A stretch of 64,000 nt of DNA from Candidatus Woesearchaeota archaeon (GTDB lineage Archaea > Nanobdellota > Nanobdellia > SCGC-AAA011-G17 > JACPIM01). The stretch is taken from NCBI GenBank assembly GCA_964513145.1, contig CAZELK010000002.1:1-64000 (forward strand), given 5' to 3'. The translations under genes were made by a program, and so were the position numbers. How positions within the stretch are numbered: the first letter of the stretch is position 1; every line of letters begins with the position of its first letter. The notes under the pieces were generated by a model. It saw only the letters and a list, made by a program, of their open reading frames with translations, was not told where the DNA came from and did not search any database. This document shows, piece after piece, positions 34,293 through 54,387 of this stretch.

Positions 34293-34330
34293 ATTATCCT
34301 ATTACTAAATTACTATTTTTTGTAAAACTT

Positions 34331-34365
34331 CTTTTAGTCCTTGATTAAACTTTTTCTAAGGGTTT
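34331..34365 (-). repeat. Free-standing copy of the palindromic element also found in the tRNA introns
   Basis: Minus strand AAACCCTTAGAAAAAGTTTAATCAAGGACTAAAAG versus the Phe intron AAACTTTTTAGAAAAAAGTTTAATCAAAAAAACTAAGAAG. Confidence 0.8.
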
Positions 34366-34369
34366 AAAA

Positions 34370-34488
34370 TGGGCCCGATCAGATTTGAACTGACGGCCGC
34401 TCGATTATCAGTCGAGTGCTCCAATTGTCCATACTTTTAGTTTTGCCAAAGCTTTTCCTAAAAGCTTTCCAGACTAAGCTACGGGCCC
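34370..34488 (-). tRNA. tRNA-Ile(GAU) with a 44-nt D-loop intron (34425-34468)
   Basis: Acceptor GGGCCCG/CGGGCCC-A; anticodon arm CTCGA-CTGATAA-TCGAG; T arm GTCAG-TTCAAAT-CTGAT; BHB central helix GTCT/GGAC with bulges GGA and AAT. Confidence 0.92.
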
Positions 34489-34540
34489 ATAAAGGAAACA
34501 CAATTATTTCATTTATTAAATTTTGCATATAAAAATTGAT

Positions 34541-34924
34541 TTAAAAATCAGTTAATTTAGAAAGTCTTCCTGAAACTTTGCCAGTAAAATACCTTGAGTC
34601 TTTTGGGATAAGGGGCACATAAACAGGATCTAGCTCTATTCCTAAATATCTGGCTTTGGTATAAATATGGCCTAGAGCATAGCAATAAGAATCACGTACA
34701 ATTTTATTAGCTTGCCTGAAAACAGCGATTTCACAAATTAAATCTTCAACAAATCCCCGCATTTTTTGCTCTATATTATTCATCTTCCTATTAACAGATA
34801 ATTTAGCAAGATCATACCTTCCTTCAGTCTTATGTTTAGTAATTTGAAATGATTTAGATTGTTTCAATTTTGTAACTAAATCATCTATTGAAGTTATCCT
34901 TGATTTAAGTTCTTTTTTATCCAT
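34541..34924 (-). CDS. Hypothetical protein
   Basis: 127-aa ORF, no recognised motif. Confidence 0.55.
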   Translation of the reverse strand: MDKKELKSRITSIDDLVTKLKQSKSFQITKHKTEGRYDLAKLSVNRKMNNIEQKMRGFVEDLICEIAVFRQANKIVRDSYCYALGHIYTKARYLGIELDPVYVPLIPKDSRYFTGKVSGRLSKLTDF

Positions 34925-34950
34925 AAACCCAATATAAAAAAGAAAGGCTT

Positions 34951-35112
34951 TTAATCCTTCCTTTTTTTCGTTCTAAAAGCCCTTATTAAATCATCAGGGC
35001 ATCTGGTTGTTTTATAGCAATTAGGGCAGATTAAGATAGGGTTATCAGCATCAAACTTATAAGGTCCCATAAAATTGTGGCATCCACATTTACATGTAAA
35101 TTCATATTCCAT
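34951..35112 (-). CDS. Small Cys-rich (zinc-finger-like) protein (53 aa, not in ORF track)
   Basis: MEYEFTCKCGCHNFMGPYKFDADNPILICPNCYKTTRCPDD... Confidence 0.55.
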   Translation of the reverse strand: MEYEFTCKCGCHNFMGPYKFDADNPILICPNCYKTTRCPDDLIRAFRTKKRKD

Positions 35113-35266
35113 TATTAATAAAAATCAAACTAATTATTTAAAGAAAAGCTGTATAAATTAATACTTTATTTTCTAAAAAATACAGATGCATATATTTTTG
35201 TTAAAAACTTTCAAAATAAAATTTTGTACTACTATTAAATTATTACTTCTACTATTTATAAATACC

Positions 35267-35305
35267 ACTGGACAAAACCTACTGGACAAGACAAAGACCT
35301 GCCTA
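35267..35305 (+). repeat. 39-bp repeat, copy 2
   Basis: Directly after the TATA-like TTTATAAATA; inverted copy of 29650-29688. Confidence 0.93.
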
Positions 35306-35395
35306 GCACTTTTAAAGTAAATTATCTTTTTACAATATAAGAAAAAGTTAAAAACATTTTGTCAAACTTTTTCAAAAAAATCGGAGGTACTAAAA

Positions 35396-35604
35396 TGATA
35401 ATGCAATTATTAAGCAAAAAAGAAGACAAATACATGAGTTGGGAAGAGTATAAAAAAAGGATGATAGAAATGCAGGTAATACATCTTATAGAGCAGTTCA
35501 TCAAACAAGATTCAAGTTATAGTTATGATGATCTAGAAAATTTAGACATAGCAAGATTTAAACAAATTGGGGGTGTTAAAAATGCAGGGAATATATTCGA
35601 ATGA
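35396..35604 (+). CDS. Small hypothetical protein
   Basis: GGAGGT SD before ATG 35396. Confidence 0.55.
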
Positions 35605-35695
35605 GTTTAGGGAAGAGTTAATAGATGATGATGAGATCTCAGCAGAAGAATATTTTTTTATGCTTGGATATGAATCTGAAGATTTAGATTTTTAA
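35582..35695 (+). CDS. Small acidic protein (37 aa, not in ORF track); possible paralog of 6940-7086
   Basis: MQGIYSNEFREELIDDDEISAEEYFFMLGYESEDLDF; GGGGTG upstream. Confidence 0.65.
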   Translation: MQGIYSNEFREELIDDDEISAEEYFFMLGYESEDLDF

Positions 35696-35730
35696 ATTTT
35701 ATTTTTTTATTTAATTTATAAAAATTAAAA

Positions 35731-36024
35731 ATGAATGAATTAAATTTTAAAGATAAATTTGAGAAAAATATAATCCTAACACTAGAACGAATAAAACATA
35801 TAAGTCTTCATATTCAAGTAAATAATTATATTTCAATCATTGAGAATACGTTAAAATATCCGGAGATTTTATCAAAAGACTCTGAAAAAAATATATATTA
35901 TTACCAAAAATATTTAAAGTTAGAGAACATATATTTTATAATAGTAGTTAAACTTACTAATGAAGAGGGTTCGATAATAACAGTTTATAAAATGCAAAAC
36001 CAAAAAAATGAAACAAAAAATTAA
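35731..36024 (+). CDS. Putative RelE/BrnT-like toxin
   Basis: ERIKHI..H, IENTLKYPE, IITVY; upstream of a DUF2283-like gene. Confidence 0.6.
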   Translation: MNELNFKDKFEKNIILTLERIKHISLHIQVNNYISIIENTLKYPEILSKDSEKNIYYYQKYLKLENIYFIIVVKLTNEEGSIITVYKMQNQKNETKN

Positions 36025-36226
36025 AATATTGTATGATGAGGAAGGCGATTATTTAGAAATAAATTTAAGGAAAACTAAAGATACTTATTTTGATGAAATA
36101 AAAAAAGATTTTGCTCGAATTTTAGAAACAAAAACAAATAAAATTGTAGGTTATGCAGTTTTTAATTTTACAAAACAAAAAAACAAACCTATTGAAATCG
36201 AGATACCGACCGTAATTTCAGCTTAG
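36008..36226 (+). CDS. DUF2283-like protein (putative antitoxin)
   Basis: YDEEGDYLEI...KIVGYAVFNF. Confidence 0.75.
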   Translation: MKQKIKILYDEEGDYLEINLRKTKDTYFDEIKKDFARILETKTNKIVGYAVFNFTKQKNKPIEIEIPTVISA

Positions 36227-36230
36227 AAAA

Positions 36231-37316
36231 TTAATCTAAAAAGTCTTTATTTTTAATTTTTTCAGGTAAGTATTTCTCAGAAATAAAACTTATACCTTTA
36301 GAAGTAAGGGACTGAATTTCTACTTTAGCTTCGAATTCTTTCATCATCTTAAATTGTCTTTGCCATTCTTTATTATCTTTAAACCAAGCATATTCTGAAA
36401 CTTGTTTAATTCTTGCATAATCTTTTTCATCTAATTTAATGAAGTGTTTTTTAAGATCGTATTTGATAACATCATCCATAGTGATACCAACATATTTTAC
36501 GCCCGGAATTGTTAATCTTCCTGACGCATGAGACAGCGCGATGCTGCCGTATTTAATTACGGAGTAAATATATGCACCGTAAATGTCCCCGTCACAGAGT
36601 ACATAAACTGGTAGCTTATGTTCTTCATATAATCTTTGTAATAATCTTCTAATTCCTCTTGTAGTTTGACCTTGTGAAGAAATTATAATACAATCATTTT
36701 TTTCCCAGAATTTATCTTCCTGCAAACGTTCCCAAACAGCTGCTTTTTCCATATAAAGAACATATTTAGCATTTACTTTCTTAAATATGATTTCATCAGT
36801 GATAGATGGGACACTCCACCCCCCACTACCCATTTTACTTAAGTCAATAGTATCTCCTTTATCTTCAATTACAACTTTTCCAGCTACACTTCCCATTTTA
36901 TTAGCAGCTACATGTAATTGTTCCCTGGAAAAATCAGTAATGACTTCTAAATCTTCAATAGCTTTGTCAGATTCGGTTTGATCATCAACTAGATTAATAT
37001 TTGTGCCTGGTATAGTTCTCTTTACCATGTAAAATACATCTCTTAAACTTGAATGTTTGCCAGAACTCAATAATTCATTTTTTATAACAGAGGCAACTTC
37101 AACAGTCTGTAAAAATTTCTTGGAATGTGCAACATTAAAGAAGCTCCTGGAAGACATTTTGTCTCCTAATTTTAGTATTTTTTGTTTAGTATCATAAACT
37201 ATATTGCTTAAATTTCTTAAGCTCATTTCAATTTCAGGATTTTTTCCTTTTTTAATTTGATCAACTATCTTATTGCCAAAATCTTCCAAAACTTTTTTTG
37301 ATTTATTTTCTGCCAT
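36231..37316 (-). CDS. top6A: DNA topoisomerase VI subunit A
   Basis: SLRDVFY, YMEK, QGQ..RG, CDGDIYG, EIQSL. Confidence 0.96.
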   Translation of the reverse strand: MAENKSKKVLEDFGNKIVDQIKKGKNPEIEMSLRNLSNIVYDTKQKILKLGDKMSSRSFFNVAHSKKFLQTVEVASVIKNELLSSGKHSSLRDVFYMVKRTIPGTNINLVDDQTESDKAIEDLEVITDFSREQLHVAANKMGSVAGKVVIEDKGDTIDLSKMGSGGWSVPSITDEIIFKKVNAKYVLYMEKAAVWERLQEDKFWEKNDCIIISSQGQTTRGIRRLLQRLYEEHKLPVYVLCDGDIYGAYIYSVIKYGSIALSHASGRLTIPGVKYVGITMDDVIKYDLKKHFIKLDEKDYARIKQVSEYAWFKDNKEWQRQFKMMKEFEAKVEIQSLTSKGISFISEKYLPEKIKNKDFLD

Positions 37317-37318
37317 AA

Positions 37319-39040
37319 TTATTTGCCAAGCTTGGTTTGTCTATCCTTGCCAGATTTTTTCTTTTCTTTGCCTTTCTTTGTTTCTTTCTTATTATCTTCC
37401 ATTAACTCTTTTTGTTCTTCCATATCTTGCTTGATTTCTTCTTTTAACTCTTTATTTTCAACACTGCTTAACAATTCTTTCATATTTTTATGAAGTATTT
37501 TTGTAAGTTCCTCAGTTAGAATATTTTCTTTTTCATTAGTTAACATACTTAAAGCCCTGGATAATTCTGGAATATATTTGATAAATAAATCTATTTTTTC
37601 TTTTTGCTCTTTAGCTTTGACATTTTTCCTGATAAATATTCCTAGTCTTCTTCCGCATTCTTGCAATCCCAATTTAATTTCTTTAATTATATCTTCATAA
37701 TGGGCAATTGCGTCCTTGCTTTCAGATGTAAATGGCACCCATACAGATGCCATGTGGACAACTAATACTAAAGGTCCGTAAGGTAATGATCCTGAACTTT
37801 GCTGTAATCCATAAGGTCTCCAATTTATGTTTTGAACACTTTCAGTAATTGCACATGCGCCTTGTTGATATAATAAGGGAACCCTGTTTGCAAATCTCAT
37901 TAATCTGACTTGTCCTTCTTTTTCTAAATCTCCCCCAAATGCACAGCTCACTTCTATGGCAAAGGGTCTTCCTTTGTAAACTACAGGGCTTCTTGAAACA
38001 GCAGTATAAAAATCAGCATTAATTTCTTTTTTCAACCCTTTAACTAATAATTCTTCTCCAATTGGGCTGATGCAATTAGTAGGCGGAGCAATTATTTTTG
38101 TGTTCTGCATTGATTTATACAAACTTTCACTTTGTGCAAGATCTAACTCTTCTGGTTTTAATTTTGCATCCAATATTGCTTTATCACAAATCTCTTTTGC
38201 AGTTACAGAGCTAATCCTTGAAAAATCATTTTGTAAAAAAGAGCTTAATGTTCGTGACTCTGTGTTTTTCAGCATTTTAATTAAAATACCTAATTCAATG
38301 CCATAAGGATGCGGCTTAATTTCCTGTGCTTCAACAGGCAGTTCGTTAGTTGCCCTAGGATACTCAACTTTCTCATTTAAAGGATTTATATAAACAATTC
38401 TAGCATGCGGGTTTACAATTGCAGTTTGTTTTAAATATTCGTCAACACTTTGTTTTCCTTTTTGGTACTTTCCTTCTAATTCAAGTTCTACCTTGGTTCC
38501 ATGATCTTTATTCCAGTCAAAATTTTCCTCTTTAACAATTTCAGGTTCATTTTTTACTGTGTCAATATGCAGCCAATAATGATGTGCTTTTTGTTTAGGT
38601 CCGATTTTGGAAGTTATAATAACTGGTTTTCCAGTAGTTAATTGAGAATATAAAACAGCAGCGCTTATCCCAATTCCTTGCTGTCCTCTTTGCATTTTCA
38701 TAGCATGAAACTTGCTTCCATATAATAATTTTGCAAAAATTCTCGGAATTTGTTCTTTTACAATCCCAGGTCCATTATCTTCAACTATAATTTTAAACCT
38801 GCTTTCAGATAATTGTTTTATTTCGACAAAGATTTCGGGTAGTATCTTCATTTCTTGAGCTGCGTCAAGAGAATTATCGCAAGCTTCTTTAATTGCCATC
38901 AAAATTGCTTTAGCTGGACTATCAAAACCTAGTAAATGCCTGTTTTTGGTAAAAAATTCAGAAACTGATATTTCACGTTGCTTCTTTGCAAGCTCTTCAG
39001 CTTTAATCACTTCTTTTATTTCACTATCCTTTGACATCAT
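37319..39040 (-). CDS. top6B: DNA topoisomerase VI subunit B
   Basis: EACDNSLDA, EDNGPG, GSKF, RGQQGIGIS, RFANRVPL. Confidence 0.97.
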   Translation of the reverse strand: MMSKDSEIKEVIKAEELAKKQREISVSEFFTKNRHLLGFDSPAKAILMAIKEACDNSLDAAQEMKILPEIFVEIKQLSESRFKIIVEDNGPGIVKEQIPRIFAKLLYGSKFHAMKMQRGQQGIGISAAVLYSQLTTGKPVIITSKIGPKQKAHHYWLHIDTVKNEPEIVKEENFDWNKDHGTKVELELEGKYQKGKQSVDEYLKQTAIVNPHARIVYINPLNEKVEYPRATNELPVEAQEIKPHPYGIELGILIKMLKNTESRTLSSFLQNDFSRISSVTAKEICDKAILDAKLKPEELDLAQSESLYKSMQNTKIIAPPTNCISPIGEELLVKGLKKEINADFYTAVSRSPVVYKGRPFAIEVSCAFGGDLEKEGQVRLMRFANRVPLLYQQGACAITESVQNINWRPYGLQQSSGSLPYGPLVLVVHMASVWVPFTSESKDAIAHYEDIIKEIKLGLQECGRRLGIFIRKNVKAKEQKEKIDLFIKYIPELSRALSMLTNEKENILTEELTKILHKNMKELLSSVENKELKEEIKQDMEEQKELMEDNKKETKKGKEKKKSGKDRQTKLGK

Positions 39041-39296
39041 GATTGAAAAAAATTATTTATTTATAAAGTTTTGTTTTTAAGCAGGTTAGGCAATTTTATA
39101 AAAATATTTTAATATATCAAAAATATGGGCTCTGATAAACAGACAAATTTATTTTTCAGAAGAAAATATTTAATTGATATTAATTATGTTAATTATTATT
39201 GGAGTAAAAATAGATTATATTAATAGCTGCAGTTGACAAAGATATACATTATCACATAATGCACACCATCTTAGAAATTGATTCGGAAATTTTATA

Positions 39297-39809
39297 CTAA
39301 AGTTCGTCTATTTTACTAAGTTCTCTTTCCATGTATTTGTAAGCATTTCCATGAGGCGCTCCCCTTAATAAAATTTCCATTCCTCTTTTGGCGATATCAA
39401 CTTGTATTATTTTGCCTATAATAGAAACAGTTTTTCCATAAATAACAATATTAGTATCAGTTAAATTTTCTACTGCTTCTCTTGCCTTTCCCTCTTTTCC
39501 AATAATCCTTGCTTTTAATCTCTCAAATTTCTTCTTGGATTTTCCTGTAAAATCTTTTATATTTATAATCTCAATGCAAAATTCATCTTTTAATAAATTC
39601 TTGGCAACTGAAGGGTTAAAACCACGGCCAACTGCCTTTACAATAAGATTGGCGTCATAAACTCCAATACCCTCTCCTTCAATAAAAACTCCGCCTTCTT
39701 TATCAACAGTTATCTTTGTATGTGTATCTCTCTCTATTGATTTCTTTACTTCTCCATTCTTTCCAATTAAAACTCCAACCCTTTCTTTGGGTATTCTTAA
39801 GTCATGCAT
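39297..39809 (-). CDS. KH-domain pre-rRNA processing protein (Dim2/Pno1-like)
   Basis: RVGVLIGKNG, AVGRGF, RIIGKEG, GAPHGNAY. Confidence 0.92.
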   Translation of the reverse strand: MHDLRIPKERVGVLIGKNGEVKKSIERDTHTKITVDKEGGVFIEGEGIGVYDANLIVKAVGRGFNPSVAKNLLKDEFCIEIINIKDFTGKSKKKFERLKARIIGKEGKAREAVENLTDTNIVIYGKTVSIIGKIIQVDIAKRGMEILLRGAPHGNAYKYMERELSKIDEL

Positions 39810-39813
39810 TTTT

Positions 39814-40158
39814 CTAGAATTCTTCTACATTTTCCAGCTTCTTAATATAATTCTTTTGTTTTAGCCATTCAATTTGAGATGGCCTGTATTTAAAAATTAT
39901 GTCTCCTTTTTCATCTCCACCTAAAGCCCAAGGTTCAACTAAAACATAATCTCCTTCTCTTAGCCATAATTTTCTTTTTAGTCTTCCTGGAATTCTGCAT
40001 ATTCTTACTTTTCCATCAAAACATTTCACTCTCATTCTACTGGCACCAAGTCTTTGGTCTAGCAACCCTATACTCTGGTTGCCTCTTGGTAATTTAACCC
40101 TTGAAATCTCGCTCTGTATTTCTTCTTGCTTTGCTAGCTCGTCGCTTTTCTTGCTCAT
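39814..40158 (-). CDS. eif1a: Translation initiation factor aIF-1A
   Basis: LGASRMRVKCFDGKVRICRIPGRLKRKLWLREGDYV. Confidence 0.96.
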   Translation of the reverse strand: MSKKSDELAKQEEIQSEISRVKLPRGNQSIGLLDQRLGASRMRVKCFDGKVRICRIPGRLKRKLWLREGDYVLVEPWALGGDEKGDIIFKYRPSQIEWLKQKNYIKKLENVEEF

Positions 40159-40195
40159 ATATTAAGATTTAATTAACAAATGTTTATAAAAGTTC

Positions 40196-41038
40196 TTATT
40201 CCCTATTGATAATATAGAAAATTTCATTTTCAGTGTCAAGTCTTTCATAATTTAAATTTATTTTACCCAATAAATTTACAAACCATTTCCTTTCTATGTT
40301 TCTCATATTTTTCAAAGAAATAGTTTTTTTAGAAAAACTTACAACTAAGTATTTGCAGTTTATATTGTCAATTAAATTATTGAAGAAAATTATCCTCTTA
40401 TTGGCCAGATCTAAAAACTTAAATAAAAAACATACATCTGCTTTTTCATAATTAAAATAATCAACTATATTTCTAACTCTCGCCTTGCCGAAAATTCCGA
40501 ATTTGGAAACTTCCTTAAAATAATTGTTTAAAAAATCAACATCACTCTTGCTTATATCATATGCAAAATAATTTCCTTTAAATTGGCTTAATATAATTGA
40601 ACATGGATTCAAGCCGCAAGCCAGATCTAATATTGATTTAGGCTTTCCAGTAATATTGAAAATAAGATTATAAACTTTTGAATAATTCTCAAGTCTTTCT
40701 CTTGAAGAAGTGTGCAGTTTTAAAATCTCTTTGGATAGCTTTTTTATTGCGTCTAAATTTTCTGTTTTTTGTAATTCTACTAGCAACTTATTTTTCTTAG
40801 ATTGTTTCTTTATTTGAAAAACCCCATAATTTTTATACAATTGCTTTCTGATTTCTTTAGTTAATTGTTTAAATTTTTTATTCTTAATAATTAAATCTAA
40901 ATCTTTTTTAAAAAGTCCATTAAAATAATCATTTTTTAAGTATTTGGATAAAATAGTTGATACATAAGAATCATCAATCCCAAAATTTTTCTTTCCCTTA
41001 ATCAAAAAAATTAACTTCTGAATCTTGTTTTTCTTCAT
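40196..41038 (-). CDS. ArmA/Rmt/Sgm (FmrO)-like rRNA methyltransferase homolog
   Basis: LKLHTSSRERL, SILDLACGLNP, YDIS, FLFKFLD, VVSFSKKTIS. Confidence 0.8.
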   Translation of the reverse strand: MKKNKIQKLIFLIKGKKNFGIDDSYVSTILSKYLKNDYFNGLFKKDLDLIIKNKKFKQLTKEIRKQLYKNYGVFQIKKQSKKNKLLVELQKTENLDAIKKLSKEILKLHTSSRERLENYSKVYNLIFNITGKPKSILDLACGLNPCSIILSQFKGNYFAYDISKSDVDFLNNYFKEVSKFGIFGKARVRNIVDYFNYEKADVCFLFKFLDLANKRIIFFNNLIDNINCKYLVVSFSKKTISLKNMRNIERKWFVNLLGKINLNYERLDTENEIFYIINRE

Positions 41039-41357
41039 TTAATCTAAAACAAACAGTAACCCTATAAATATCCTTGCTTGACATCTTGTCTCTGGTATGC
41101 AGTTTTCTGCTTAAAATTAATTTGCCTTTAAAACTTCTCTTCAGCTTCTGTCCCAAAGCCCTGGCAAATCTCTGGTCACTCAAATAAATATCAACACCAG
41201 TTTTTAAATTAATCTCTTTGGCAATAAAAACATTTTTTCTTTCTGAAATTCTATCTAAAACAAACTTATAGAGTTTTTCATCCCTGGGTCTTAGCTGTAT
41301 AATAGCTTGAAAATAACCATGATGTTTATCTGGATCATAATCTGACGCCTTGAGCAT
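40998..41357 (-). CDS. Stand-alone NMD3-like C-terminal domain protein
   Basis: YFQAIIQLR, GVDIYL, RKLHTRD...YRVTVCFR. Confidence 0.7.
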   Translation of the reverse strand: MLKASDYDPDKHHGYFQAIIQLRPRDEKLYKFVLDRISERKNVFIAKEINLKTGVDIYLSDQRFARALGQKLKRSFKGKLILSRKLHTRDKMSSKDIYRVTVCFRLNEEKQDSEVNFFD

Positions 41358-41640
41358 GTGGTACTCCTTTTATTGTAATAATGCTGTCTTCATGTATAAG
41401 ATGCAATTCTAAAGCCATGGCAACTATGTCCTTGCCAACAATATTAAAATTATCTGACTGTACTAAGACTTCTTTGGCTTTTTCACTATTTATTTTTTCT
41501 CCTTTATAAAAATCTTCTTTAACATCAAAAAAAAGATCTCCTTCCTCAAAAGTTTTCCCCAAAATTCCTTCATCACAAATAGCTGCTACTTCTCTGCCTA
41601 ATTTTTGATGAATTTTAACAAAAAACATTTTTTCTTCCAT
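41335..41640 (-). CDS. DUF424 family protein
   Basis: VAAICDEGILGK.FEEG, FYKGE, NIVG, GVPHAQ. Confidence 0.85.
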   Translation of the reverse strand: MEEKMFFVKIHQKLGREVAAICDEGILGKTFEEGDLFFDVKEDFYKGEKINSEKAKEVLVQSDNFNIVGKDIVAMALELHLIHEDSIITIKGVPHAQGVRL

Positions 41641-41672
41641 TTTAGATTAGGAGTTGATAAGAACCTTGGTTC

Positions 41673-42082
41673 TTATATTTTGGCTGTGACAGAATGCTTT
41701 GCTCCGCAAGCACTACACCTTAGAAATAAAAATCGGTCTTCTTTAATTAATTTCGTGTCAGGTTTGCCGCATTCTTTGCATAAAACAAAATTCTTGGCAA
41801 ATTGTTCTATTCTTTGGTTAATAAAATTAGAATTTAATTTTCTTCCAAAAATTAATCTTTGCCCGTCAATTTGTGCAGGCGTAGCTAATTCTTTTTGTAA
41901 ATATTTTAGAAGCTGTGCAGGTTCTCTGCCAAATGTATTACATATAGCTATGAAGTTTGTAACTATAGTCTTGTTCCCTTCTACATGTCCAGTAACTGTC
42001 GGGATTTCAAATCTCTCCTTTGTATTAACAATAGTTTTAGGAAGTTCATTTCTCGCTTTTTTCAATAATTCAACATATTCCA
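41673..42082 (-). CDS. eif2b: Translation initiation factor aIF-2 beta
   Basis: ERFEIP, GNKTIVTNF, CKECGKPDT, CSACGA. Confidence 0.95.
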
Positions 42083-42157
42083 TAAAAACTCTAAAGAAAA
42101 GCACTTTTTAAAGGTTTTTAATGCAAGGGCTTTGCACATAACAGTAATTTTTCAAAA

Positions 42158-42544
42158 TTATTCAGTTAGTATTAATCCAAATTCTTTTAATCTTTCAAAA
42201 TGTTTTTTATTATTAGTTAATAATTCTATATTATTATCGATGCAAATTGCAGCTATAAATATATCTTTTAACTCTAGTATCTGCCCTTTTAATTCTAGCT
42301 TTCTTAAAATATCTCCTGCTAAAATAGATGATTCTTGATTAAACTCTAAAACATTAAGCCATTCAAAAAATTGGAAAATATCTTCTGAATTTTTTCTTCC
42401 ATACCATAATTCAAAAGTATTTATAGAAGTAGTAAACAAATCAGCATCTAAATTCTGAATCATTTTAATAGTTTCATTTTGATTTCTTAATATATTAATT
42501 AATACATCAGAATCTAGGCATACTTTTCTTGCCATTTCTTCCAC
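42158..42544 (-). CDS. vapC: VapC PIN-domain toxin
   Basis: CLDSDVLI, FELWYG, DIFIAA, TNNKKHF. Confidence 0.92.
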   Translation of the reverse strand: MEEMARKVCLDSDVLINILRNQNETIKMIQNLDADLFTTSINTFELWYGRKNSEDIFQFFEWLNVLEFNQESSILAGDILRKLELKGQILELKDIFIAAICIDNNIELLTNNKKHFERLKEFGLILTE

Positions 42545-42732: not shown

Positions 42733-42768
42733 AAAAATATAAATATATACATATATATATAAATATTT

Positions 42769-46419: not shown

Positions 46420-46509
46420 TATATTAAATTACAATAGATAATTCACTTGTTTATATAATTTCTGTAAAGATTTTTATAATTACTGAAAATATTCCTAAGA
46501 AGTCGTAAA

Positions 46510-47442
46510 TTATTCAAATTCCTTTGCAAAACTTTCTAAATCCATAAAATTCATTAGTGTGTCTCCTTTAGAAGATATAGACTCGAAAAACAACAAGCTG
46601 GCATAATTTTTACTTAGTTTCTTCATCCATTTTCTTCCTATGCCAAAAGCTACAGAATGACCGACTAATTCATTTGCCAGCCTGTCTTCTAATAAAGGGT
46701 ATCTTTCCATATAATTTTTTAAATCTAAAGAATGTTTTTTAAATTCTTTTCCTGCATCAGTTAGTATCCAGTCTAAACCCTTTCCAGTTTTCTTTTGAAC
46801 ATTTGAAATTATATTTTTTACAAAATAATATACTATGACTGCAAAAATTAGTAAAGGTAATGTAAAAAAAGCTATTTGTGGAATAAATATAGATATTATA
46901 AAAAGAAAAATTAGTGATGCTATTATTGCCCATTTCGGGATTATTTTTATATTTTCAATATTTATTGGTTTATTGGAATTTTTAATTGAATATTTATCAT
47001 AAGATTTAACTTTTAAATCAACTTTTAAACCCCTATGCTTATCAGAGAATTCTTTAATTGCATCTTTTATATGTTTTGTCATTTTTTTCTGGAAATCTTT
47101 ATCAACAACGCCTTCAGTTATCATGCCATTTGTTATTATTTTTATTAATTCCTTGAATTTGGTACTATAGGCTATAATCCCCATTTCATCAAAAGTTAGT
47201 GATTCTTTACTGCCAAAAATTATTTTTATAAATTTATTTTCAAAATCTTTGGCTGGTTTTTTGTTTGTCATGATAATATGTTTGCCAACAACATTTAGAT
47301 TTCCTTTTACAATAAGATCCAGAATTGTGGCAGTAATTTCTCTGGGTCCAATAGACCAATCTACCAATACGCCAGAAAACCCAGGAGGAATTTTACTTAA
47401 TTTGTGAAAATTTAAATTTGATATATCATGAGAATCAGTCAT
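46510..47442 (-). CDS. Membrane protein (DUF2207-like)
   Basis: PPG..G.LVD, ITATILDLIVKG, two TM helices, AFGIGRKW. Confidence 0.6.
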   Translation of the reverse strand: MTDSHDISNLNFHKLSKIPPGFSGVLVDWSIGPREITATILDLIVKGNLNVVGKHIIMTNKKPAKDFENKFIKIIFGSKESLTFDEMGIIAYSTKFKELIKIITNGMITEGVVDKDFQKKMTKHIKDAIKEFSDKHRGLKVDLKVKSYDKYSIKNSNKPINIENIKIIPKWAIIASLIFLFIISIFIPQIAFFTLPLLIFAVIVYYFVKNIISNVQKKTGKGLDWILTDAGKEFKKHSLDLKNYMERYPLLEDRLANELVGHSVAFGIGRKWMKKLSKNYASLLFFESISSKGDTLMNFMDLESFAKEFE

Positions 47443-47455
47443 TTAATTTATATAT

Positions 47456-48013
47456 TTATTTTTTCTTGACAATTTTATTCAGATTTTTAACAAGCATGTC
47501 TACTGCTTCTCTTAATTTACCTTCGCTTCTTGTTCCTGTACAAACAATTTTTCCATTGCTAAATAATAAAAAAGTAGCCCTAGTTCCTTCCAATTTATAA
47601 ACCAAGCCAGGAAACTGCTCTGGTTCATATTCAGTGTTTTCTAAATCCAAAGCCAAAGAATTTAAATTTAAATCCATGTGAATGCTTCCAGAAGCAACCA
47701 TGTTCTGGACTTTAATTTGTGGAAAAGTTGTTATTCTTATTTTTATCTTTTCTATATTTTTAATAATAGCCTGGACAGCTAATTTAACCTTAGCCATTGA
47801 CTTTGCGCCTGTACAGACTATTTTTCCTGAACTAAAAATCAAGGCAGAAGTCTTAGGTTCTTTAATCCTCATTACCAATCCTGGAAATTGCTCAGGATTA
47901 TATTCTGTATTAGGCAATGCCTCTGCTAATTTTATTAATGGGATATCATGCCCCAAAGAAGCTGAAGCCACTATATTCTGTATTTTTATTTCTTTTTTAG
48001 CCATTTTATTCAT
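47456..48013 (-). CDS. tbp: TATA-binding protein
   Basis: Two repeats: QNIVAS/QNMVAS, Y(N/E)PEQFPGLV, L(I/L)FS(S/N)GKIVCTG. Confidence 0.98.
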   Translation of the reverse strand: MNKMAKKEIKIQNIVASASLGHDIPLIKLAEALPNTEYNPEQFPGLVMRIKEPKTSALIFSSGKIVCTGAKSMAKVKLAVQAIIKNIEKIKIRITTFPQIKVQNMVASGSIHMDLNLNSLALDLENTEYEPEQFPGLVYKLEGTRATFLLFSNGKIVCTGTRSEGKLREAVDMLVKNLNKIVKKK

Positions 48014-48061
48014 TTATAAATAGCTGAAAAGATTTATAAACCTTCGCCAAAAAAATAACTT

Positions 48062-49417
48062 CTATAACCTCTTTATAACTGGTTCTTTTTTAGTATCCTC
48101 AATAATATAGCCTTCCCTTTTAATCAAGTCTCTTAATCTGTCAGATTCTTTGAAATTTTTTTTCTTTCTAGCTTCTTCTCTTTTTTTAACCAGTTCTTTG
48201 ATTTCTCTCGGAATTTCTAGTTTCTCAAAATCCAAAAACCCAAAAAAAGTATTTATTTCTTCAAAGAATTTTAGGACTTTTTTGCCTCCAGAATTAATTT
48301 TGTTCAAATCCCTAATTAAGTTAAAAACAACAGCCAAGGCATTGGGTGTATCTAAATCATCATCCATAAATTTAAAAAATTCTTTTTTATATTTTAACAA
48401 AAGTTTGTTTGATTCTTTTGTATCTTTTCCATTCTTTAATTTCAAAATAAAATCCTGAATTCTTTGTAGGGAATTTTTAGCATCATTCATCAATTCTTCA
48501 GAATATTCAATTGAAGATCTGTAATTATGTGATAAATAAAAGTATCTTATTAATTTGAAATCATATTTTCCTAAAAAATCTCTCAAAGAAATAATATTGC
48601 CCAAAGATTTGGACATTTTACTTTTTTTCATATTTAAAAAAGCAGTATGTACCCAGTACTTAACCAAGGGTTTTCCAGAAATAGCTTCCATCTGTGAAAT
48701 TTCTGCTTCATGGTGCGGGAAAATTAAATCAACAGCCCCACCATGCATATCATATTGTGCGCCAAAAAAACTCTCAGTTATTGCAGTATCTTCTATATGC
48801 CAGCCAGGTCTTCCTTTAAAATTATCCATTTCCCAATATGGTTCATTTTCTTTCTTAAATTTCCATAAACAAAAATCCGCTTTATTTCTTTTTTCAGAAT
48901 TTTCATCTATTCTCGAAACTCCATCCTCAGCTTCTTGAATTGTTCTTCTTGCTAATTTTCCATAATCTTTAAATTTAGTGACATCAAAGTAATATCCATC
49001 AGAAATCTTGTAAGCGTATCCATTTTCAATTAATCTTTTTACTTGTGACACAATTTGAGAAATATAGTTAGTCGCACTAGCATATTTAGTTACAGAATCT
49101 ATATTTAGTTTTTTTATATCTTCAAAATAGGCTTTCTCATATTTTTCAGACAGTTGTTTCCAAGTTAGTTTTTCTTCCTTTGCTTTACTAATTATTTTAT
49201 CATCTATATCGGTAATATTCTGCAGATAAAAGACATTATATTTTTTAAATCTTAAATATTTAACAATAAAATCAAATTGAGTATAAGTTTTTGCATTACC
49301 AATATGAATATAAGAATAAGTTGTTGGACCGCATACAAACATATTTATTTTTTTTCCATACAGTGGCTTAAAAACTTCTTTTTTTCTTGTTAAAGTGTTA
49401 AATAATTTTAAGACCAT
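48062..49417 (-). CDS. cysS: Cysteinyl-tRNA synthetase
   Basis: CGPT, HIGN, GRPGWHIE, DLIFPHHE, KMSKS. Confidence 0.97.
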   Translation of the reverse strand: MVLKLFNTLTRKKEVFKPLYGKKINMFVCGPTTYSYIHIGNAKTYTQFDFIVKYLRFKKYNVFYLQNITDIDDKIISKAKEEKLTWKQLSEKYEKAYFEDIKKLNIDSVTKYASATNYISQIVSQVKRLIENGYAYKISDGYYFDVTKFKDYGKLARRTIQEAEDGVSRIDENSEKRNKADFCLWKFKKENEPYWEMDNFKGRPGWHIEDTAITESFFGAQYDMHGGAVDLIFPHHEAEISQMEAISGKPLVKYWVHTAFLNMKKSKMSKSLGNIISLRDFLGKYDFKLIRYFYLSHNYRSSIEYSEELMNDAKNSLQRIQDFILKLKNGKDTKESNKLLLKYKKEFFKFMDDDLDTPNALAVVFNLIRDLNKINSGGKKVLKFFEEINTFFGFLDFEKLEIPREIKELVKKREEARKKKNFKESDRLRDLIKREGYIIEDTKKEPVIKRL

Positions 49418-49451
49418 AAGAATAAAACCAATTACTTATTTATATTATTTT

Positions 49452-49991
49452 TTAATTAAAAAGACCCTGGTTTTTTACTACAGTAACAACCAAAGATTCA
49501 GAATTATCCCCTTTGATTGTAGGAACATCAATATTACATACTTTTACGCCCAAAGCTCCGCCCTTGTCCTTGACAATTAATTTTATGTCAACTTGTTTTC
49601 CAGATTGAAGCGGATATTCTTTGGATTCTGTTTTTAATGTATCAGCAAATAAGCATTCTAAGGTTTTGTCAGAACTAGTTACTCTAGCTTTGACATTTAA
49701 AGTAGTTTCTTCAAAATCAGTAACTATAAATTGCACAATTTGCGAAGATTCTTGTTCTAATTCAATAGATGGGGGGGAAACATATACTGTTTTGTCAACT
49801 TCCTTGAAAATGTCAGATATAGCCCCGTCAGCCTTTTCAAAAGCCCCTTGCGAGAGTCTGTTTATATTCTTAAAAGTCCCCCTAACCCAGATCAAGCCCA
49901 AACTCAATAAAGTAATACCTAAAATAATAACAATAATAGTAGTCATAGAAAGTTCTATTGCCCCTTTTTTTTGAAAACTCTTTTTTCGCAT
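49452..49991 (-). CDS. Type IV pilin-like protein with class III signal peptide
   Basis: KKG|AIELSMTTIIVIILGITLL. Confidence 0.75.
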   Translation of the reverse strand: MRKKSFQKKGAIELSMTTIIVIILGITLLSLGLIWVRGTFKNINRLSQGAFEKADGAISDIFKEVDKTVYVSPPSIELEQESSQIVQFIVTDFEETTLNVKARVTSSDKTLECLFADTLKTESKEYPLQSGKQVDIKLIVKDKGGALGVKVCNIDVPTIKGDNSESLVVTVVKNQGLFN

Positions 49992-50099
49992 CTATTTATT
50001 GATAACTTAATATATTAATAAAGTTTTCTTTCAAAATTGATTTTGTTTATTGTAAGTTTTTGACTAGACTTGAAACATTTTCTTTTGAAGAAAAGCTTA

Positions 50100-50223
50100 T
50101 GGGCCCGGAGTGATTTGAACACCCGACATATACGGCTTCAGCGTATTGCTCTCCTTAGCCACTCTTCTTAGTTTTTTTGATTAAACTTTTTTCTAAAAAG
50201 TTTACAGGCTGAGCTACGGGCCC
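50100..50223 (-). tRNA. tRNA-Phe(GAA) with a 50-nt D-loop intron (50155-50204, position 18/19)
   Basis: Splicing restores GCTCAGCCTGGGAGAGC; anticodon arm ATACG-CTGAAGC-CGTAT; T arm GGGTG-TTCAAAT-CACTC; BHB central helix AGCC/GGCT with bulges TGT and AAG. Confidence 0.93.
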
Positions 50224-50281
50224 GAAAAGAAAAATTAGAAGAAGGTATTTAAAGATTTCCAAGAAGGTAACGTAAAATTTA

Positions 50282-50300
50282 TATAGTATTTTATACTATA
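50282..50300. promoter_or_regulatory. Palindrome TATAGTA-TTTTA-TACTATA upstream of a toxin-like gene
   Basis: Perfect 7-bp arms. Confidence 0.5.
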
Positions 50301-50309
50301 AAATATTGA

Positions 50310-50519
50310 ATGGTTCACTTCAAAGAGATAAAGGCAACAGAACACTATAAAAATGAACATGAAAGAGAAGTTCCATTTGACAAAGTTATTGAAATAATCT
50401 TGTCTACAAAAAACCCAAGGAAAAAAGAAGATAAATTTGAAATTGAAAAAGAAGGTTACTATATATTGTTTGAAATACAAAACAATATTTTATATGTAAT
50501 AAATGCCAAAAAAACTTAG
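50310..50519 (+). CDS. Putative BrnT/RelE-like toxin
   Basis: 69 aa, HEREVPFDKVIEII...LYVINAKK; paired with the downstream gene. Confidence 0.5.
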   Translation: MVHFKEIKATEHYKNEHEREVPFDKVIEIILSTKNPRKKEDKFEIEKEGYYILFEIQNNILYVINAKKT

Positions 50520-50529
50520 GAGAGTAAAA

Positions 50530-50844
50530 ATGAAATGTCCAAATTGTAGTTCGGAATTAAAAAAGGTAAAGGTAAAGGTAGAGAGAGCTAAAAATCCAGT
50601 CATAAGCCATCAATGTACTAATTGTGATTATTTTGAATTTGAAGAAGAATCATCAAAAAGAGTTATAGAAGAATTAAGAGAAAGTCCTCTAAAAATAAAA
50701 CAAAAAATTGTAAAAATATCACAAGATAAATTAGGAATCTATTTTAATAGTAACATTATAAGAAGTTTAGAATTAAAAAAGGGTGAAGAGATTTATATTT
50801 CTGTTCCCGATAAAAAGCATATTGTTTTAGAATTAAAAAAATAA
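50530..50844 (+). CDS. Zinc ribbon plus AbrB-like protein (putative antitoxin)
   Basis: MKCPNC...CTNC; KIVKISQDKLGIYF...LKKGEEIYI. Confidence 0.65.
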   Translation: MKCPNCSSELKKVKVKVERAKNPVISHQCTNCDYFEFEEESSKRVIEELRESPLKIKQKIVKISQDKLGIYFNSNIIRSLELKKGEEIYISVPDKKHIVLELKK

Positions 50845-50961
50845 TCTAAAGGTATTCCCTGTAGTATAATCAATTTTAGTTCTCCATGATAGCTTTTTTA
50901 AGATTATTATTTAATTAATTTTTTAGTGAAGTTTTCCGTTAATGCTTTTCGCAAAATGGTT

Positions 50962-51999
50962 CTATTTCGTCAATACTCGTTTAGTTCTAAATTTACTTTT
51001 AGGTCTGGAATTCAGCATTTTATCTTGTTCTTTTATTTTAACAAAATTCCACTTCCAAACATCTTCGTCCCTTACAAAAATTATAACCCTGCTTATTTTA
51101 TCTTTTAATTTGGGAATATAACCTGTTTTATCCCCTATAACTTTTCCATACTCCTCTATATCTTTCATTGTAGGCATGTTACTTAGTTTGAGTCTTTTTT
51201 TACTTTCTCCTAGCCAGGAATACCCTTTTAATTGCACAAATTTTGGTTTGTAAATATTAATTAAATCAGAAAATTCAGAGGCATTATGATCATTCAAACC
51301 TTTTGTAATTGTAGTTCTCATTATAGTTCTTGAGTGTTTAAATTCTTTCATTAAACTTAAACTTTCTTTAACTTTTTCAAAAGCATTTGGAATCATGGAA
51401 TTTGTAATTTTTTTATAATCTTCTTCATTCGTAGCATAAACACTAATGCTTAAATTATTCGGTTCAGCATCTTTGTCCAACATTTCTTTAATTCTGTTTG
51501 GCATTGTTCCATTTGTAACAATAAAAACAGTCATCTTTCTATTTTTTATTTCTTTAATTAAATCTGCAATTTTTGGATAAAGTGTTGGTTCTCCGTCTAA
51601 TGAAATTGCAACATGATGTGGATCCATTGCCTGAGCAAAATTTTCTTTAGTAACTATTCCGCCAAAACCAGATAATAAATTTCTTTGTGCACCAATTATT
51701 CCATCAACAATTTCTTCAGGCTCATCCCATTTATTTTCTGACTTAAATCTGTCTTTGCCAAATTTACGCCAACAAAATGTGCAGGAAAAATCACAAAAAT
51801 CCATTGAGCTGGTCATTTGGACACAGCGGTGAGATTTAATACCGTAAATAGATTTGTAACAGTTATGGTCATTTTTAATTTTAGATTTAGTCCAGCGACA
51901 TAACTGAACAGCAGTATGTTTATTCTTGCCTACAAATCTATATCCTGCTTTCTCATACTTTTTCTGTTCGTCGTTCGATAATTTTACAAATTCTTGCAT
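50962..51999 (-). CDS. taw1: Radical SAM 4-demethylwyosine synthase (TYW1/Taw1)
   Basis: KHTAVQLCRWT, YGIKSHRCVQM, CDFSCTFCWR, ISLDGEPTLY, VTNGT. Confidence 0.92.
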   Translation of the reverse strand: MQEFVKLSNDEQKKYEKAGYRFVGKNKHTAVQLCRWTKSKIKNDHNCYKSIYGIKSHRCVQMTSSMDFCDFSCTFCWRKFGKDRFKSENKWDEPEEIVDGIIGAQRNLLSGFGGIVTKENFAQAMDPHHVAISLDGEPTLYPKIADLIKEIKNRKMTVFIVTNGTMPNRIKEMLDKDAEPNNLSISVYATNEEDYKKITNSMIPNAFEKVKESLSLMKEFKHSRTIMRTTITKGLNDHNASEFSDLINIYKPKFVQLKGYSWLGESKKRLKLSNMPTMKDIEEYGKVIGDKTGYIPKLKDKISRVIIFVRDEDVWKWNFVKIKEQDKMLNSRPKSKFRTKRVLTK

Positions 52000-52041
52000 A
52001 ATAGATTTAAGAAAGAGACATTTATAAAGACAACTTACAAT

Positions 52042-52355
52042 TTATCTTGTTCTTCTTCTAAAAAAGAAATTTCTATATCCAGTAGAGAAATTTGTTATAG
52101 CTCTTTCATTAGTTATATCAACTTCTGGCAAACCATATTGTCTTAATATTGGGTTAACTTCATCAAATATAATTTTGGCCAAACCTTCTCTTCTTTTTTT
52201 ACTATTTCTGATAAGGTCTTTGCTCTTTCTATAGCTTGATTTCTATCAATTAATGAAGTAACATAGGCTTCTATAGATTCACTAGCTGTATCTGAAAATT
52301 CTAATGGTACCTTAGTATTTCTTCCAAAAATTTCTTCATAATTATGTATTAACAT
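52042..52355 (-). pseudogene. Apparently frameshifted hypothetical gene
   Basis: Reading continues as KIIFDEVNPILRQYGLPEVDIT in the -1 frame from the A-run at 52173-52176. Confidence 0.4.
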
Positions 52356-52392
52356 AAACTTTCTAAAAATTTTTATTTTATAAATGTTACTA

Positions 52393-52793
52393 TTATTTTG
52401 TAGCTAAATAATGAGTTAGATACCCTACCCAATCACCTATTACAGATCTATCCCTTATAGTTTCAGGATCTAAACTGTAAATTCCACCAACAGGTATTTC
52501 TTTATATAATTTAAACAAATATCTATTGAAAGCATATAATTTACTTATTAGAGCCTCATGAATTATTTTTCTATTTTGTCTAACTCTTCTATTCTATTAA
52601 CTACATCCCATTCTTCTCTATATTTTATTAATTGAATTCTTCTTTCCATACTTGAAACAAATTCCACGTATCTTTTACAACTGTCTACAAGATCATCTAA
52701 AAGTTCTAATCCTAATTTATCATTATGATCAATAAGAAATTTATGAATTAATTCATATCTCCAGCCAGCTTTTTCAACCTCTTCTTCTGACAT
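52393..52793 (-). pseudogene. Frameshifted DUF3232-like gene
   Basis: After DKIEK* the -1 frame continues IIHEALISKLYAFNRYLFK...PVGGIY...IGDWVG; family call from recall. Confidence 0.55.
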
Positions 52794-52835
52794 TAATTTA
52801 TTAAACATAGAAAACATTATAAATATTTTTAACTA

Positions 52836-54359
52836 ATGTCATTTATAATGGAAAATTATGATGCTATATTTGTATTCCCTAAGTTATGGGAAAAAGAATT
52901 TAATCCACCTAATCAGCCGCCTTATGGTTTGTTAATGTGCTCTGACTTATTATTAAAAAAAGGATACAATGTTTTAGTTTATGATGAAAGATTGGAAAGC
53001 CTGGGTGTAAAAAGCAGGTCAGAATTAGTTCAGGCTGTAAAGCACAGCAAGCCTTTATTTTTTGGAATATCTTCGCAATCAGGTCCAATGATTGAAAATG
53101 GTCTGTTAAATTCAAAATTCTTTAAACATGAATGTCCAGATACTCCTGTAGTCTGGGGTGGTGTTCATCCAACATTATTGCCAGACCAGACAATCAAACA
53201 TCCATTAATTGATGCTGTAATAAAAGGAGAAGGAGAACTGCCTTGTTTGGGATTGGCTGAAAATTTAAAAAAAGGAAATAAAGATTTTTCAAAAATTGAT
53301 GGTTTATATTGGAAAGACAAAAATAAAAATATTAAAATAAATAAGCCTTGCCCAGGTGTTCCAGATTTAGATGAAATTAACATGAGGTGGGATTTAGTAA
53401 ATCCGCAGCATTATATAAGAGACATTGATGGAAAGAAATGGTTAGGGGTTATCACAAGCAGAGGATGTCCTTTTAGATGTGGTTTTTGTTATAACATATC
53501 TTTCTTTGGAATGAGAAAATTCCGTGGATGGAGTCCTAAAAAATCCATAGAAGAAATAAAAAAAGTTTTGGAATGGGGTGTTGATTTTATTAATTTTGAT
53601 GATGATTATATTTTCGGCGACCCACTAAGAATGTGGGGTATTTTAGATTTAAAAAAACAAGAAAATTTAAACTTCGAATGGAAAGCCCCGATAAGAGGCC
53701 ATCTATTAAGAGATGCATTAACAAAAAGACTCAAAGATGGTGGCTGTGCAAGTGTAACAATTGGTGCAGAAAGTGGAAGTGAAAAAGTTTTAGATTATAT
53801 GACAAAAGATTCTGGTCCAGACGCTTATTATATGGCTGCCAAGAATTTAAAAAGATACGATATTCAGGGGAATTTCAGTTGGATTTTAGGTTATCCCGGT
53901 GAAACACTAAAAGATGTTTACATAACTCTAAATGTAATTAAAGACTTGGAAGAAATAAATCCAGACACAGAGCATGTTATTAACATTTATGCACCTTATC
54001 CAGGCACGCCTAGTTTTGATCAGGCTATAGAACGTGGATTCGTGCCTCCACCATCATTAGAAGGATGGACTGATAATTTCCGTGAAGCTTGCAAAGAATT
54101 GTCATACATTGATGAAAAAAATAAAAAAATAATGGAAGCAATACGATGGGCTGGTATTTTCAGGACAATGTACAAAAGAAAGAGATTATATGCAAGCTGG
54201 ATTAGACCTATTGTAAATGTTTTGGGGACTATTTCTAATGTAAGATGGAACCATAATCTATATAGCCTGCCAATAGAGCAAAAATCAGTAATTCTGGGAA
54301 GAGAAGTTTTAAAAAGAATGACAAGAAAGAAAAACGAAGAAATTGAAAACTTCTGTTAG
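52836..54359 (+). CDS. B12-binding-domain radical SAM protein
   Basis: PPYGL, WGGVHPT, GEGE, SRGCPFRCGFC, GAESGS. Confidence 0.93.
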   Translation: MSFIMENYDAIFVFPKLWEKEFNPPNQPPYGLLMCSDLLLKKGYNVLVYDERLESLGVKSRSELVQAVKHSKPLFFGISSQSGPMIENGLLNSKFFKHECPDTPVVWGGVHPTLLPDQTIKHPLIDAVIKGEGELPCLGLAENLKKGNKDFSKIDGLYWKDKNKNIKINKPCPGVPDLDEINMRWDLVNPQHYIRDIDGKKWLGVITSRGCPFRCGFCYNISFFGMRKFRGWSPKKSIEEIKKVLEWGVDFINFDDDYIFGDPLRMWGILDLKKQENLNFEWKAPIRGHLLRDALTKRLKDGGCASVTIGAESGSEKVLDYMTKDSGPDAYYMAAKNLKRYDIQGNFSWILGYPGETLKDVYITLNVIKDLEEINPDTEHVINIYAPYPGTPSFDQAIERGFVPPPSLEGWTDNFREACKELSYIDEKNKKIMEAIRWAGIFRTMYKRKRLYASWIRPIVNVLGTISNVRWNHNLYSLPIEQKSVILGREVLKRMTRKKNEEIENFC

Positions 54360-54387
54360 AAACTTTTTTTAAAAGTTTCATCAAAAG
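54359..54387 (+). repeat. Free-standing copy of the palindromic element
   Basis: GAAACTTTT-TTT-AAAAGTTTC-ATCAAAAG. Confidence 0.75.

Follow-up and report, generated by a model that had tools for sequence, protein, structure and literature searches.

Can a short repeat dispersed through an archaeal genome supply the material of new transfer RNA (tRNA) introns? The question is raised by a stretch of 64,000 nt from a Candidatus Woesearchaeota archaeon (hereafter designated the window; contig 2, bases 1–64000, of a 977.6-kb genome that is assembled in 18 contigs, has 29% G+C, and is 98.8% complete by marker genes). A sequence-only reading of the window had noted that the D-loop insertions of two tRNA genes resemble each other as well as palindromic sequences lying outside tRNAs, and had proposed a mini-element akin to repetitive extragenic palindromes (REP) or miniature inverted-repeat transposable elements (MITE), tolerated in tRNAs because it is spliced out. 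We analyzed the repeat in this genome (G000), in three genomes of the same genus (G001–G003), in one of another genus of the same family (G008), and in those of two other families (G019 and G020), and consider it probable that the element is one family of ~30-nt hairpin mini-repeats, similar to REPs and bacterial interspersed mosaic elements (BIME), that serve as raw material of new tRNA introns.

The two insertion-bearing genes, tRNA-Ile(GAU) and tRNA-Phe(GAA), are both real and lie on the minus strand of the window (Table 1). They were located with our own acceptor/T-arm scan of the sequence, whereas ARAGORN, run with and without introns, reported no tRNA in the window and Rfam at the gathering score detected the 3′ part of only one. 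Reading by hand revealed in each gene a bulge-helix-bulge (BHB) motif, in which the last exon bases pair with the 3′ end of the insertion: a central 4-bp helix (GTCT/GGAC in tRNA-Ile and AGCC/GGCT in tRNA-Phe) is accompanied by two 3-nt bulges (GG↓A and AA↓T in tRNA-Ile, TG↓T and AA↓G in tRNA-Phe, arrows marking the cuts) and by weak outer helices of 1–3 bp. Cutting after the second bulge base restores exactly the sequence of intron-less orthologs, namely, the Ile D-loop of G002 and G008 and the Phe D-loop of G001. Furthermore, the genome encodes an EndA splicing endonuclease (one PF01974 match, E = 3.7e-31, in a 197-aa frame; contig 7, 33779–34039, minus strand). Since helix and bulges, intron-less orthologs, and the EndA gene agree, the two insertions are predicted to be BHB introns at non-canonical positions, as had been proposed for them, and would be removed by EndA. 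The only EndA homolog has the size of the single-unit (homotetramer-type) enzyme, though the introns occupy many non-canonical positions and have weak outer helices.

Table 1 Features of the window discussed in the text
Feature	Position	Strand	Remarks
Diverged variant unit with ACAT..ATCT arms and CACCAAAA tail	3568..3600	+	E 5.4, not significant alone; matches the unit downstream of the contig 12 TnpB gene
Free extended copy, tRNA-Ile 3′ trailer	34325..34366	-	Starts 4 nt past the tRNA-Ile discriminator
tRNA-Ile(GAU) gene	34370-34488	-	Insertion of 44 nt after G19 of the D-loop
tRNA-Ile exon 2: D-stem 3′ strand to discriminator, anticodon GAT	34370..34424	-	
tRNA-Ile D-loop intron, 44 nt	34425..34468	-	In G000 and G001; not in G002 and G008
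tRNA-Ile exon 1: acceptor 5′ strand, D-stem 5′ strand, D-loop to GG	34469..34488	-	Junction set by the intron-less G002 ortholog
tRNA-Phe(GAA) gene	50100-50223	-	Insertion of 50 nt after G18
tRNA-Phe exon 2	50100..50154	-	
tRNA-Phe D-loop intron, 50 nt	50155..50204	-	AAAC-type unit from the first intron base
tRNA-Phe exon 1	50205..50223	-	Junction set by the intron-less G001 ortholog
Free copy filling the spacer of two co-oriented genes	54360..54386	+	Next base after the TAG stop at 54357-54359; ends 14 nt before the ATG at 54401

As the sequence-only reading had stated, the two introns align with each other, both opening with the same hairpin-plus-tail unit; in tRNA-Ile, an AAGC-type unit (34441–34468) is followed by a generic CTAAAAG and then by the host-specific 3′ end. 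The further claim that this 3′ end pairs with the 5′ exon of its own tRNA to build the BHB held as well, except that it measures about 9 nt in each window intron instead of about 6–8 nt.

The unit itself comprises ~30 bases laid out as TAAAC-TTTT, loop, AAAA-GTTTA, and ATCAAAA, with linked AAGC and AACC variants. More precisely, TAAAC (or AAAGC) is followed by a T-run, a loop of 2–4 nt, an A-run, GTTT (or GCTT), and finally AATCAAAA, which may be replaced by a G/C variant. Searching the genome with a strict regular expression gave 33 copies, and an nhmmer profile built from these raised the number to 45 at E<0.05 and to 63 at E<1, as against 0 and 3–5, respectively, in a third-order Markov copy of the genome; with a reversed pattern as control, the exact pattern gave 23 matches versus 0. 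The predicted folding energy of the hairpin is −3.25 kcal/mol, compared with −0.28 for shuffles of the same bases. The profile census thus agrees with the proposal that one dispersed repeat family is common to tRNA introns and non-tRNA sites, and the two window copies outside tRNAs (E = 0.017 in the tRNA-Ile trailer and 6.5e-4 in the spacer) are real members of it. Three subfamilies, AAAC/GTTT/AATC (23 copies), AAGC/GCTT/AAGC (9), and AACC/GCTT/AACC (5), together account for 37 of 42 copies, and their changes in the two arms and the tail are linked. The arm-to-arm changes are compensatory, whereas the arm-to-tail linkage preserves no base pair; hence, the three variants look like subfamilies derived from master copies. 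On contig 6 (73984–74080, plus strand), a tandem array in which the unit recurs every 39 nt extends into an assembly gap (a run of N), and the copy numbers of arrays are therefore probably underestimated in the assembly.

Counted inside versus outside tRNAs, the 45 copies comprise 10 in tRNA introns, 32 in intergenic regions, and 3 overlapping called open reading frames; at E<0.5, 13 copies fall within 8 tRNA genes. Unit-bearing introns occur in the D-loop, at position 37/38, and in the T-arm, in tRNAs for Ile, Phe, Gly, Ser (two genes), Arg (two genes), and others, with two such introns in tRNA-Gly, three in tRNA-Ser(UGA), and two in the second tRNA-Ser. At these positions, which permit a BHB, splicing could remove the copies. 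The unit begins 0–3 nt from the 5′ splice site and is in the sense orientation in 12 of the 13 intron copies. Among the 32 intergenic copies, the 5′ end of the unit lies within 10 nt of a gene in 14, made up of 10 at the stop codons of co-oriented genes, flush with them, and 4 at the start codons of divergent genes, 3–5 nt upstream, while the others show no fixed spacing; the 3′ end of the unit abuts a gene in none of the 32. The copy in the tRNA-Ile trailer is an extended form (the unit, then ACTAAAAG-AAGTTT), the same as that of the T-arm intron that tRNA-Gly has in G000 only; downstream of tRNA-Ile in G001 and G002 there is no copy, though the synteny there differs. Moreover, other copies are clustered head to tail with related variant units (at 8.7 kb of contig 9, 88.2 kb of contig 3, and 90.7 kb of contig 4), and one antisense copy is found in the 16S–23S spacer (contig 3, 57133–57163). 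Neighboring clusters are co-oriented in 19 of 26 pairs, more often than the 13.7 ± 2.5 pairs that gene orientation would predict (P about 0.02); contig 3 carries all nine of its copies on a single strand, and those on contig 2 switch strand near 92–97 kb, which hints at a polarity of the units with the replication strand.

Units or other insertions are also indicated in RNA genes other than tRNAs. The genome has four TnpB genes, and units are present in the 3′ RNA region of some of them, inserted into loops of the RNA and not at the ends of the TnpB element. Two RNA regions 3′ of TnpB, on contig 7 (19019–19260, minus strand) and contig 1 (189679–189960, minus strand), are 95% identical, one gene being intact and the other broken; the unit lies inside the loop of a stem formed by CCACACAG and CTGTG, singly in one region and as two tandem copies in the other. 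The conserved 3′ end of these regions, CTGTGACTGGGAG-TTCAC, also stands alone on contig 4 (90785–90807). The RNase P RNA (contig 2, 94901–95248, minus strand; 115 bits) is 348 nt long versus 288 positions of the model and has element-like A/T hairpins near 95100–95190, suggesting that it may also carry insertions. The 23S rRNA (contig 3, 53636–58958, minus strand) measures 3421 nt versus 2987 model positions, and thus appears to contain ~430 nt of insertions, likely introns.

Comparison of orthologous tRNAs among the related genomes provided the empty sites that an insertion scenario calls for. The exact pattern is present 26–33 times in each of G001–G003, 30 times in G008, 33 in G019, and 12 in G020, while three others of the 40 relatives have a single match and 31 have none; relatives with the repeat bear titles such as Woesearchaeota, Pacearchaeota, and Nanoarchaeota. 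The Ile D-loop intron, with a near-consensus AAGC unit in both G000 and G001, is absent from G002 and G008, which have other introns in this tRNA. Conversely, the Phe D-loop intron is precisely absent from G001, and occurs with the same position and 3′ end in G000, G002, G003, and G008, its interior being different in every genome compared. In tRNA-Ser(UGA), G008 has a single intron (37/38) and G000, G001, and G002 have three each, the D-loop and T-loop introns missing from this outgroup. In tRNA-Gly(GCC), G008 and G001 have only the 37/38 intron, to which G000 alone adds a T-arm intron and G003 alone a D-arm intron; with G008 as the outgroup, these two are terminal-branch gains. Each gained intron is made up of an AAAC-type unit, which begins right at the splice site, and of 6–10 host-specific bases that complete the BHB. 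In the Gly T-arm intron of G000, the extended unit ends with AAGTTT, which pairs with its own AAACTT to provide the outer helix, and just six further bases (CGGG-AT) are specific to the tRNA.

The units are also exchanged within introns that already exist. The D-loop intron of tRNA-Arg(GCG) keeps its position and its 3′ end (CCAGA) in five genomes, whereas its content varies: G001 and G003 have an AAGC unit there, G000 has a mixed one, G002 has one of a second hairpin family, and G008 combines the two families; the unit in the Ser T-loop intron is likewise swapped between genomes. Similarly, in the spacer represented by the window copy at 54360, G000 has a single forward unit, G003 has other variants, G001 and G002 have several units, with a reverse one among them, and G008 has a different repeat. 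The second hairpin family has a TAAGGAT stem, a TGC loop, and a TCAACC-TGCA tail, a layout like that of the first (TAA, stem, loop, stem, TTA, TCAA), and resides, in G002 and G008 (L290, L291, and L047), in these same tRNA introns and spacers; in G000, it (TTATCAACC) is not a repeat. Since orthologous introns retain position and 3′ end while the unit changes, much of the pattern is cassette turnover and not only new insertion, and the simple insertion picture of the sequence-only reading must be amended to this extent. To judge from these comparisons, intron interiors and spacers seem to behave alike, as unconstrained DNA that is continually refilled by a few hairpin families.

What moves the units? 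In the Ile, Phe, Gly, and Ser cases, a filled site is exactly the empty site plus the intron, and thus there are no target duplications, for which a search had been suggested. As candidate drivers, a Y1 transposase and a reverse transcriptase were rejected, neither being found in G000 nor tracking the element across the 40 relatives. The REP/MITE-like designation is therefore only partly appropriate: the dispersed family and the intron gains agree with it, but target duplications and a cognate transposase, which a MITE would lead one to expect, are lacking and the units are not TnpB ends. In the mechanism that we favor, a set of mini-repeats with the common layout TAA, stem, loop, stem, TTA, and then (A)TCAA and an A-run would fill nearly all DNA that is free of coding or structural constraint, including spacers, the 16S–23S spacer, TnpB guide-RNA loops, and the interiors of BHB introns. 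The units would be duplicated, replace one another, multiply, and change orientation as DNA, perhaps while it is single-stranded at the replication fork, and fast enough to differ among species of one genus. Within a tRNA gene, a unit would survive only when it reads in the sense direction, begins right at the 5′ splice site, and has behind it a short complement of the last exon bases, such that EndA could excise it from the tRNA; new non-canonical introns on terminal branches would then be such a unit plus 6–10 host-specific bases.

Several observations weigh against this interpretation. No match to the Y1/RAYT transposase (PF01797) was obtained in G000, G001, G002, G003, G019, or G020, nor one to the reverse transcriptase domain RVT_1 in G000, G001, or G019, and in 207 loci from other organisms no recurrent neighbor protein lies beside the element, just virus-group and housekeeping clusters. 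The interpretation does not account for the source of the host-specific 3′ bases, and insertion into a single-copy essential tRNA gene would need immediate spliceability. Introns carrying the unit amount to roughly 15 of about 45 in the genome, as counted by eye. Several intron positions appear to be old, being shared with another genus, and there the unit may have entered an existing intron instead of creating it. Finally, some copies look functional: the reverse copies C3:67827 and C2:91060 place their TTTGATTAAA tail exactly at −30/−28, the position of a TATA box.

This last point leads to the alternative that the unit is a host signal, a compact terminator/promoter module kept by selection, whose copies in introns are incidental or regulate pre-tRNA transcription. 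The T-run right after the stop codon would act in termination, the A-run/T-run would resemble a BRE/TATA element, and the TTTGATTAAA tail would be a TATA box on the other strand. Genome-wide, a sharp TATA-box peak at −30/−29 and an A-rich BRE precede the start codons, and no Shine-Dalgarno signal is seen; because of these features, the mRNAs are considered mostly leaderless, a setting in which the tails of the two reverse copies are well placed. Ten sense copies start no more than 4 nt from a stop codon, reverse units precede the ATG by 2–3 nt in the orthologous spacer of G001 and G002, and giant-virus-like contigs have a forward copy after each stop and a reverse copy before each start. Most copies, however, keep no fixed distance from a start codon, forward ones lying 12 to 585 nt away, and a role of forward copies as promoters of the genes that follow them was accordingly rejected. 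At one orthologous spacer, four congeners differ in the number, variant, and orientation of the copies, and the exact element is absent from most genera of the same family yet present in other families. A function in signaling leaves the linkage of the subfamilies at three sites unexplained, a T-run terminator within essential tRNA genes would be harmful, and copies are also antisense in the rRNA spacer and located in TnpB RNA loops. Signal function may apply to some copies and leaves patchy distribution, subfamily linkage, and turnover unexplained; as an account of the family, we regard it as unlikely.

Another possibility is that the unit is a mobile BHB intron spreading via RNA, by reverse splicing, copying to DNA, and recombination, the free copies being retro-copies in transcribed spacers. 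The coincidence of its 5′ end with the 5′ splice site and the sense orientation of nearly all intron copies would be so explained, as would the related introns at the same position in different tRNAs (the D-loop after CCTGG), reminiscent of the intron groups of Thermoproteales as outlined in PMC4033280. In contrast, the majority of copies reside outside tRNAs, in tandem arrays and in both orientations; no reverse transcriptase was detected in G000, G001, or G019; bacteria, although they have no EndA, also harbor the exact core, as do giant viruses; and exchange of the unit with retention of the intron 3′ end is not predicted by mobility of whole introns. Co-oriented clusters, arrays, antisense copies, and swaps all favor spread at the DNA level, which makes the RNA-level scenario quite improbable. 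As for a chance resemblance of low-complexity sequences in a 29% G+C genome, the unit is indeed almost pure A/T, and among the copies reported as degenerate, only that at 3568–3600 is a related variant, whereas those at 1546–1567 and ~35357–35380 are indistinguishable from the AT-rich background. Nevertheless, this explanation, to which we assign a negligible probability, is already refuted by the controls, namely, 45 copies versus 0 in the Markov null, 23 versus 0 for the reversed pattern, 100 stretches versus 5 in viral contigs, and the presence in 81% of the outside matches of a TAAA prefix that had not been part of the search. DNA-level spread of hairpin mini-repeats into unconstrained sites hence remains our preferred interpretation.

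Nor is the element a private feature of this lineage, as a wider search indicated. The exact 21-base pattern was found in at least 118 stretches of a collection of species-representative genomes and in 100 stretches of IMG/VR, the latter against 5 for the reversed control. The TAAA prefix precedes 99 of the 122 genome matches listed, indicating full units. Among these matches listed, the archaeal carriers include many DPANN phyla and metagenome-assembled genomes (MAGs) labeled Methanosarcinales, Methanophagales, and Methanobacteriota, and the bacterial ones include Acutalibacteraceae and Ruminococcus MAGs (Oscillospirales, Firmicutes), whose contigs encode LuxS, a D-Ala-D-Ala carboxypeptidase, and CdaA and terminate in the repeat. 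In an Aminicenantes MAG, copies are present on at least eight contigs of 44–49% G+C, with the unit embedded in a longer mosaic repeat. At seven Aminicenantes loci (L063, L085, L104, L112, L125, L131, and L154), the 30-nt core is 100% conserved within this mosaic, in which a G+C-rich hairpin precedes the core and a second hairpin, CTTTTGAT .. ATCAAAAG, follows it, reusing the tail. The viral carriers include contigs that encode giant-virus major capsid proteins; there, the unit is arranged in arrays and occupies each intergenic gap. Eleven matches in T4-like phages represent one conserved site lacking the prefix and may be due to chance. All true outside copies are in metagenome-derived records; the collections of cultured phages and plasmids gave no convincing match, of which the BLAST low-complexity filter may have hidden some. 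Rfam matched no family at ten outside loci, and the core sequence was not found in the literature searched. The apparent identity of a 30-nt A/T sequence across domains was unexpected and needs independent confirmation. We entertain, only tentatively, the idea that the core is a pan-domain, transposase-less hairpin mini-element that would move horizontally, multiply on host replication and repair alone, and seed tRNA introns in archaea that possess EndA.

Comparison with known systems places this case between two of them. In Thermoproteales, transposed groups of tRNA introns have been described, their transposition being inferred (Fujishima et al. 2010, Mol Biol Evol 27:2233, as summarized in PMC4033280). 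As far as that summary goes, those groups and the present introns have in common several non-canonical introns in many tRNA genes, removal through the BHB, sequences common to introns of different tRNAs and positions, and rapid gain within a clade; here, by contrast, the shared part is only the 5′ two-thirds of the intron, most copies of the repeat are outside tRNA genes (after stops, in arrays, and in the rRNA spacer), and the unit is exchanged as a cassette within orthologous introns. Like bacterial REP/BIME sequences (including REPINs), the unit is a short, imperfectly palindromic sequence next to a conserved, asymmetric flank; it has dozens of extragenic copies, many of them just downstream of genes, forms mosaic clusters in which variants face either way, and turns over rapidly between close relatives. 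Unlike these, the present repeat resides in an archaeon with no RAYT/Y1 gene in the genome or its congeners, has units inside spliced introns of essential RNA genes as well, and shares its exact core across domains. With the ends of IS200/IS605, palindrome-associated transposable elements (PATEs), and TnpB/omega-RNA elements, it shares a hairpin beside a short fixed motif (TCAA, or TTGAT on the other strand), the lack of target duplication, a hint of strand polarity, and the presence of TnpB genes, but differs from them in having no TnpA, a single hairpin instead of a left and a right end, and units within TnpB RNA loops. The TCAA/TTGAT motif may resemble the right-end motif of IS608 and the target motif of ISDra2. 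Collectively, this case joins the Thermoproteales intron groups and the bacterial REP/BIME elements, its closest known relatives in kind.

Interruption of tRNA genes is heavy beyond the reach of this one repeat. The Rfam cut-off is attained by only 15–18 tRNA genes in the whole genome, whereas at least 40 would be expected; a looser scan for acceptor pairs was discarded for thousands of false positives, and a scan for G+C islands yielded further tRNAs, the inventory being partial and the all-intron totals hence approximate. Across the whole taxonomic family, the model-detectable tRNAs number 8–29 per genome, including genera lacking the exact element, and a low number was therefore rejected as a mark of element-bearing genomes. 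These numbers point to heavy interruption of tRNA genes family-wide, not tied to one repeat, and standard tRNA finders overlook most tRNA genes in genomes of this kind. Heavily interrupted tRNA genes are also reported for Asgard archaea, where many D-arm introns are missed by standard software and a 2026 census found repeated terminal-branch gains at BHB-competent sites with no route of arrival (bioRxiv 10.64898/2026.10.13.758758); here, in contrast, the gained introns are visibly built from a dispersed repeat. The origin of archaeal tRNA introns is an open question, and in this lineage a route becomes visible, consisting of a repeat unit plus a few bases that complete the splice motif, with filled and empty sites in sister genomes, through which intron birth becomes testable. 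The identity of the core across domains, if true, would point to an unrecognized kind of very small, horizontally spreading element.

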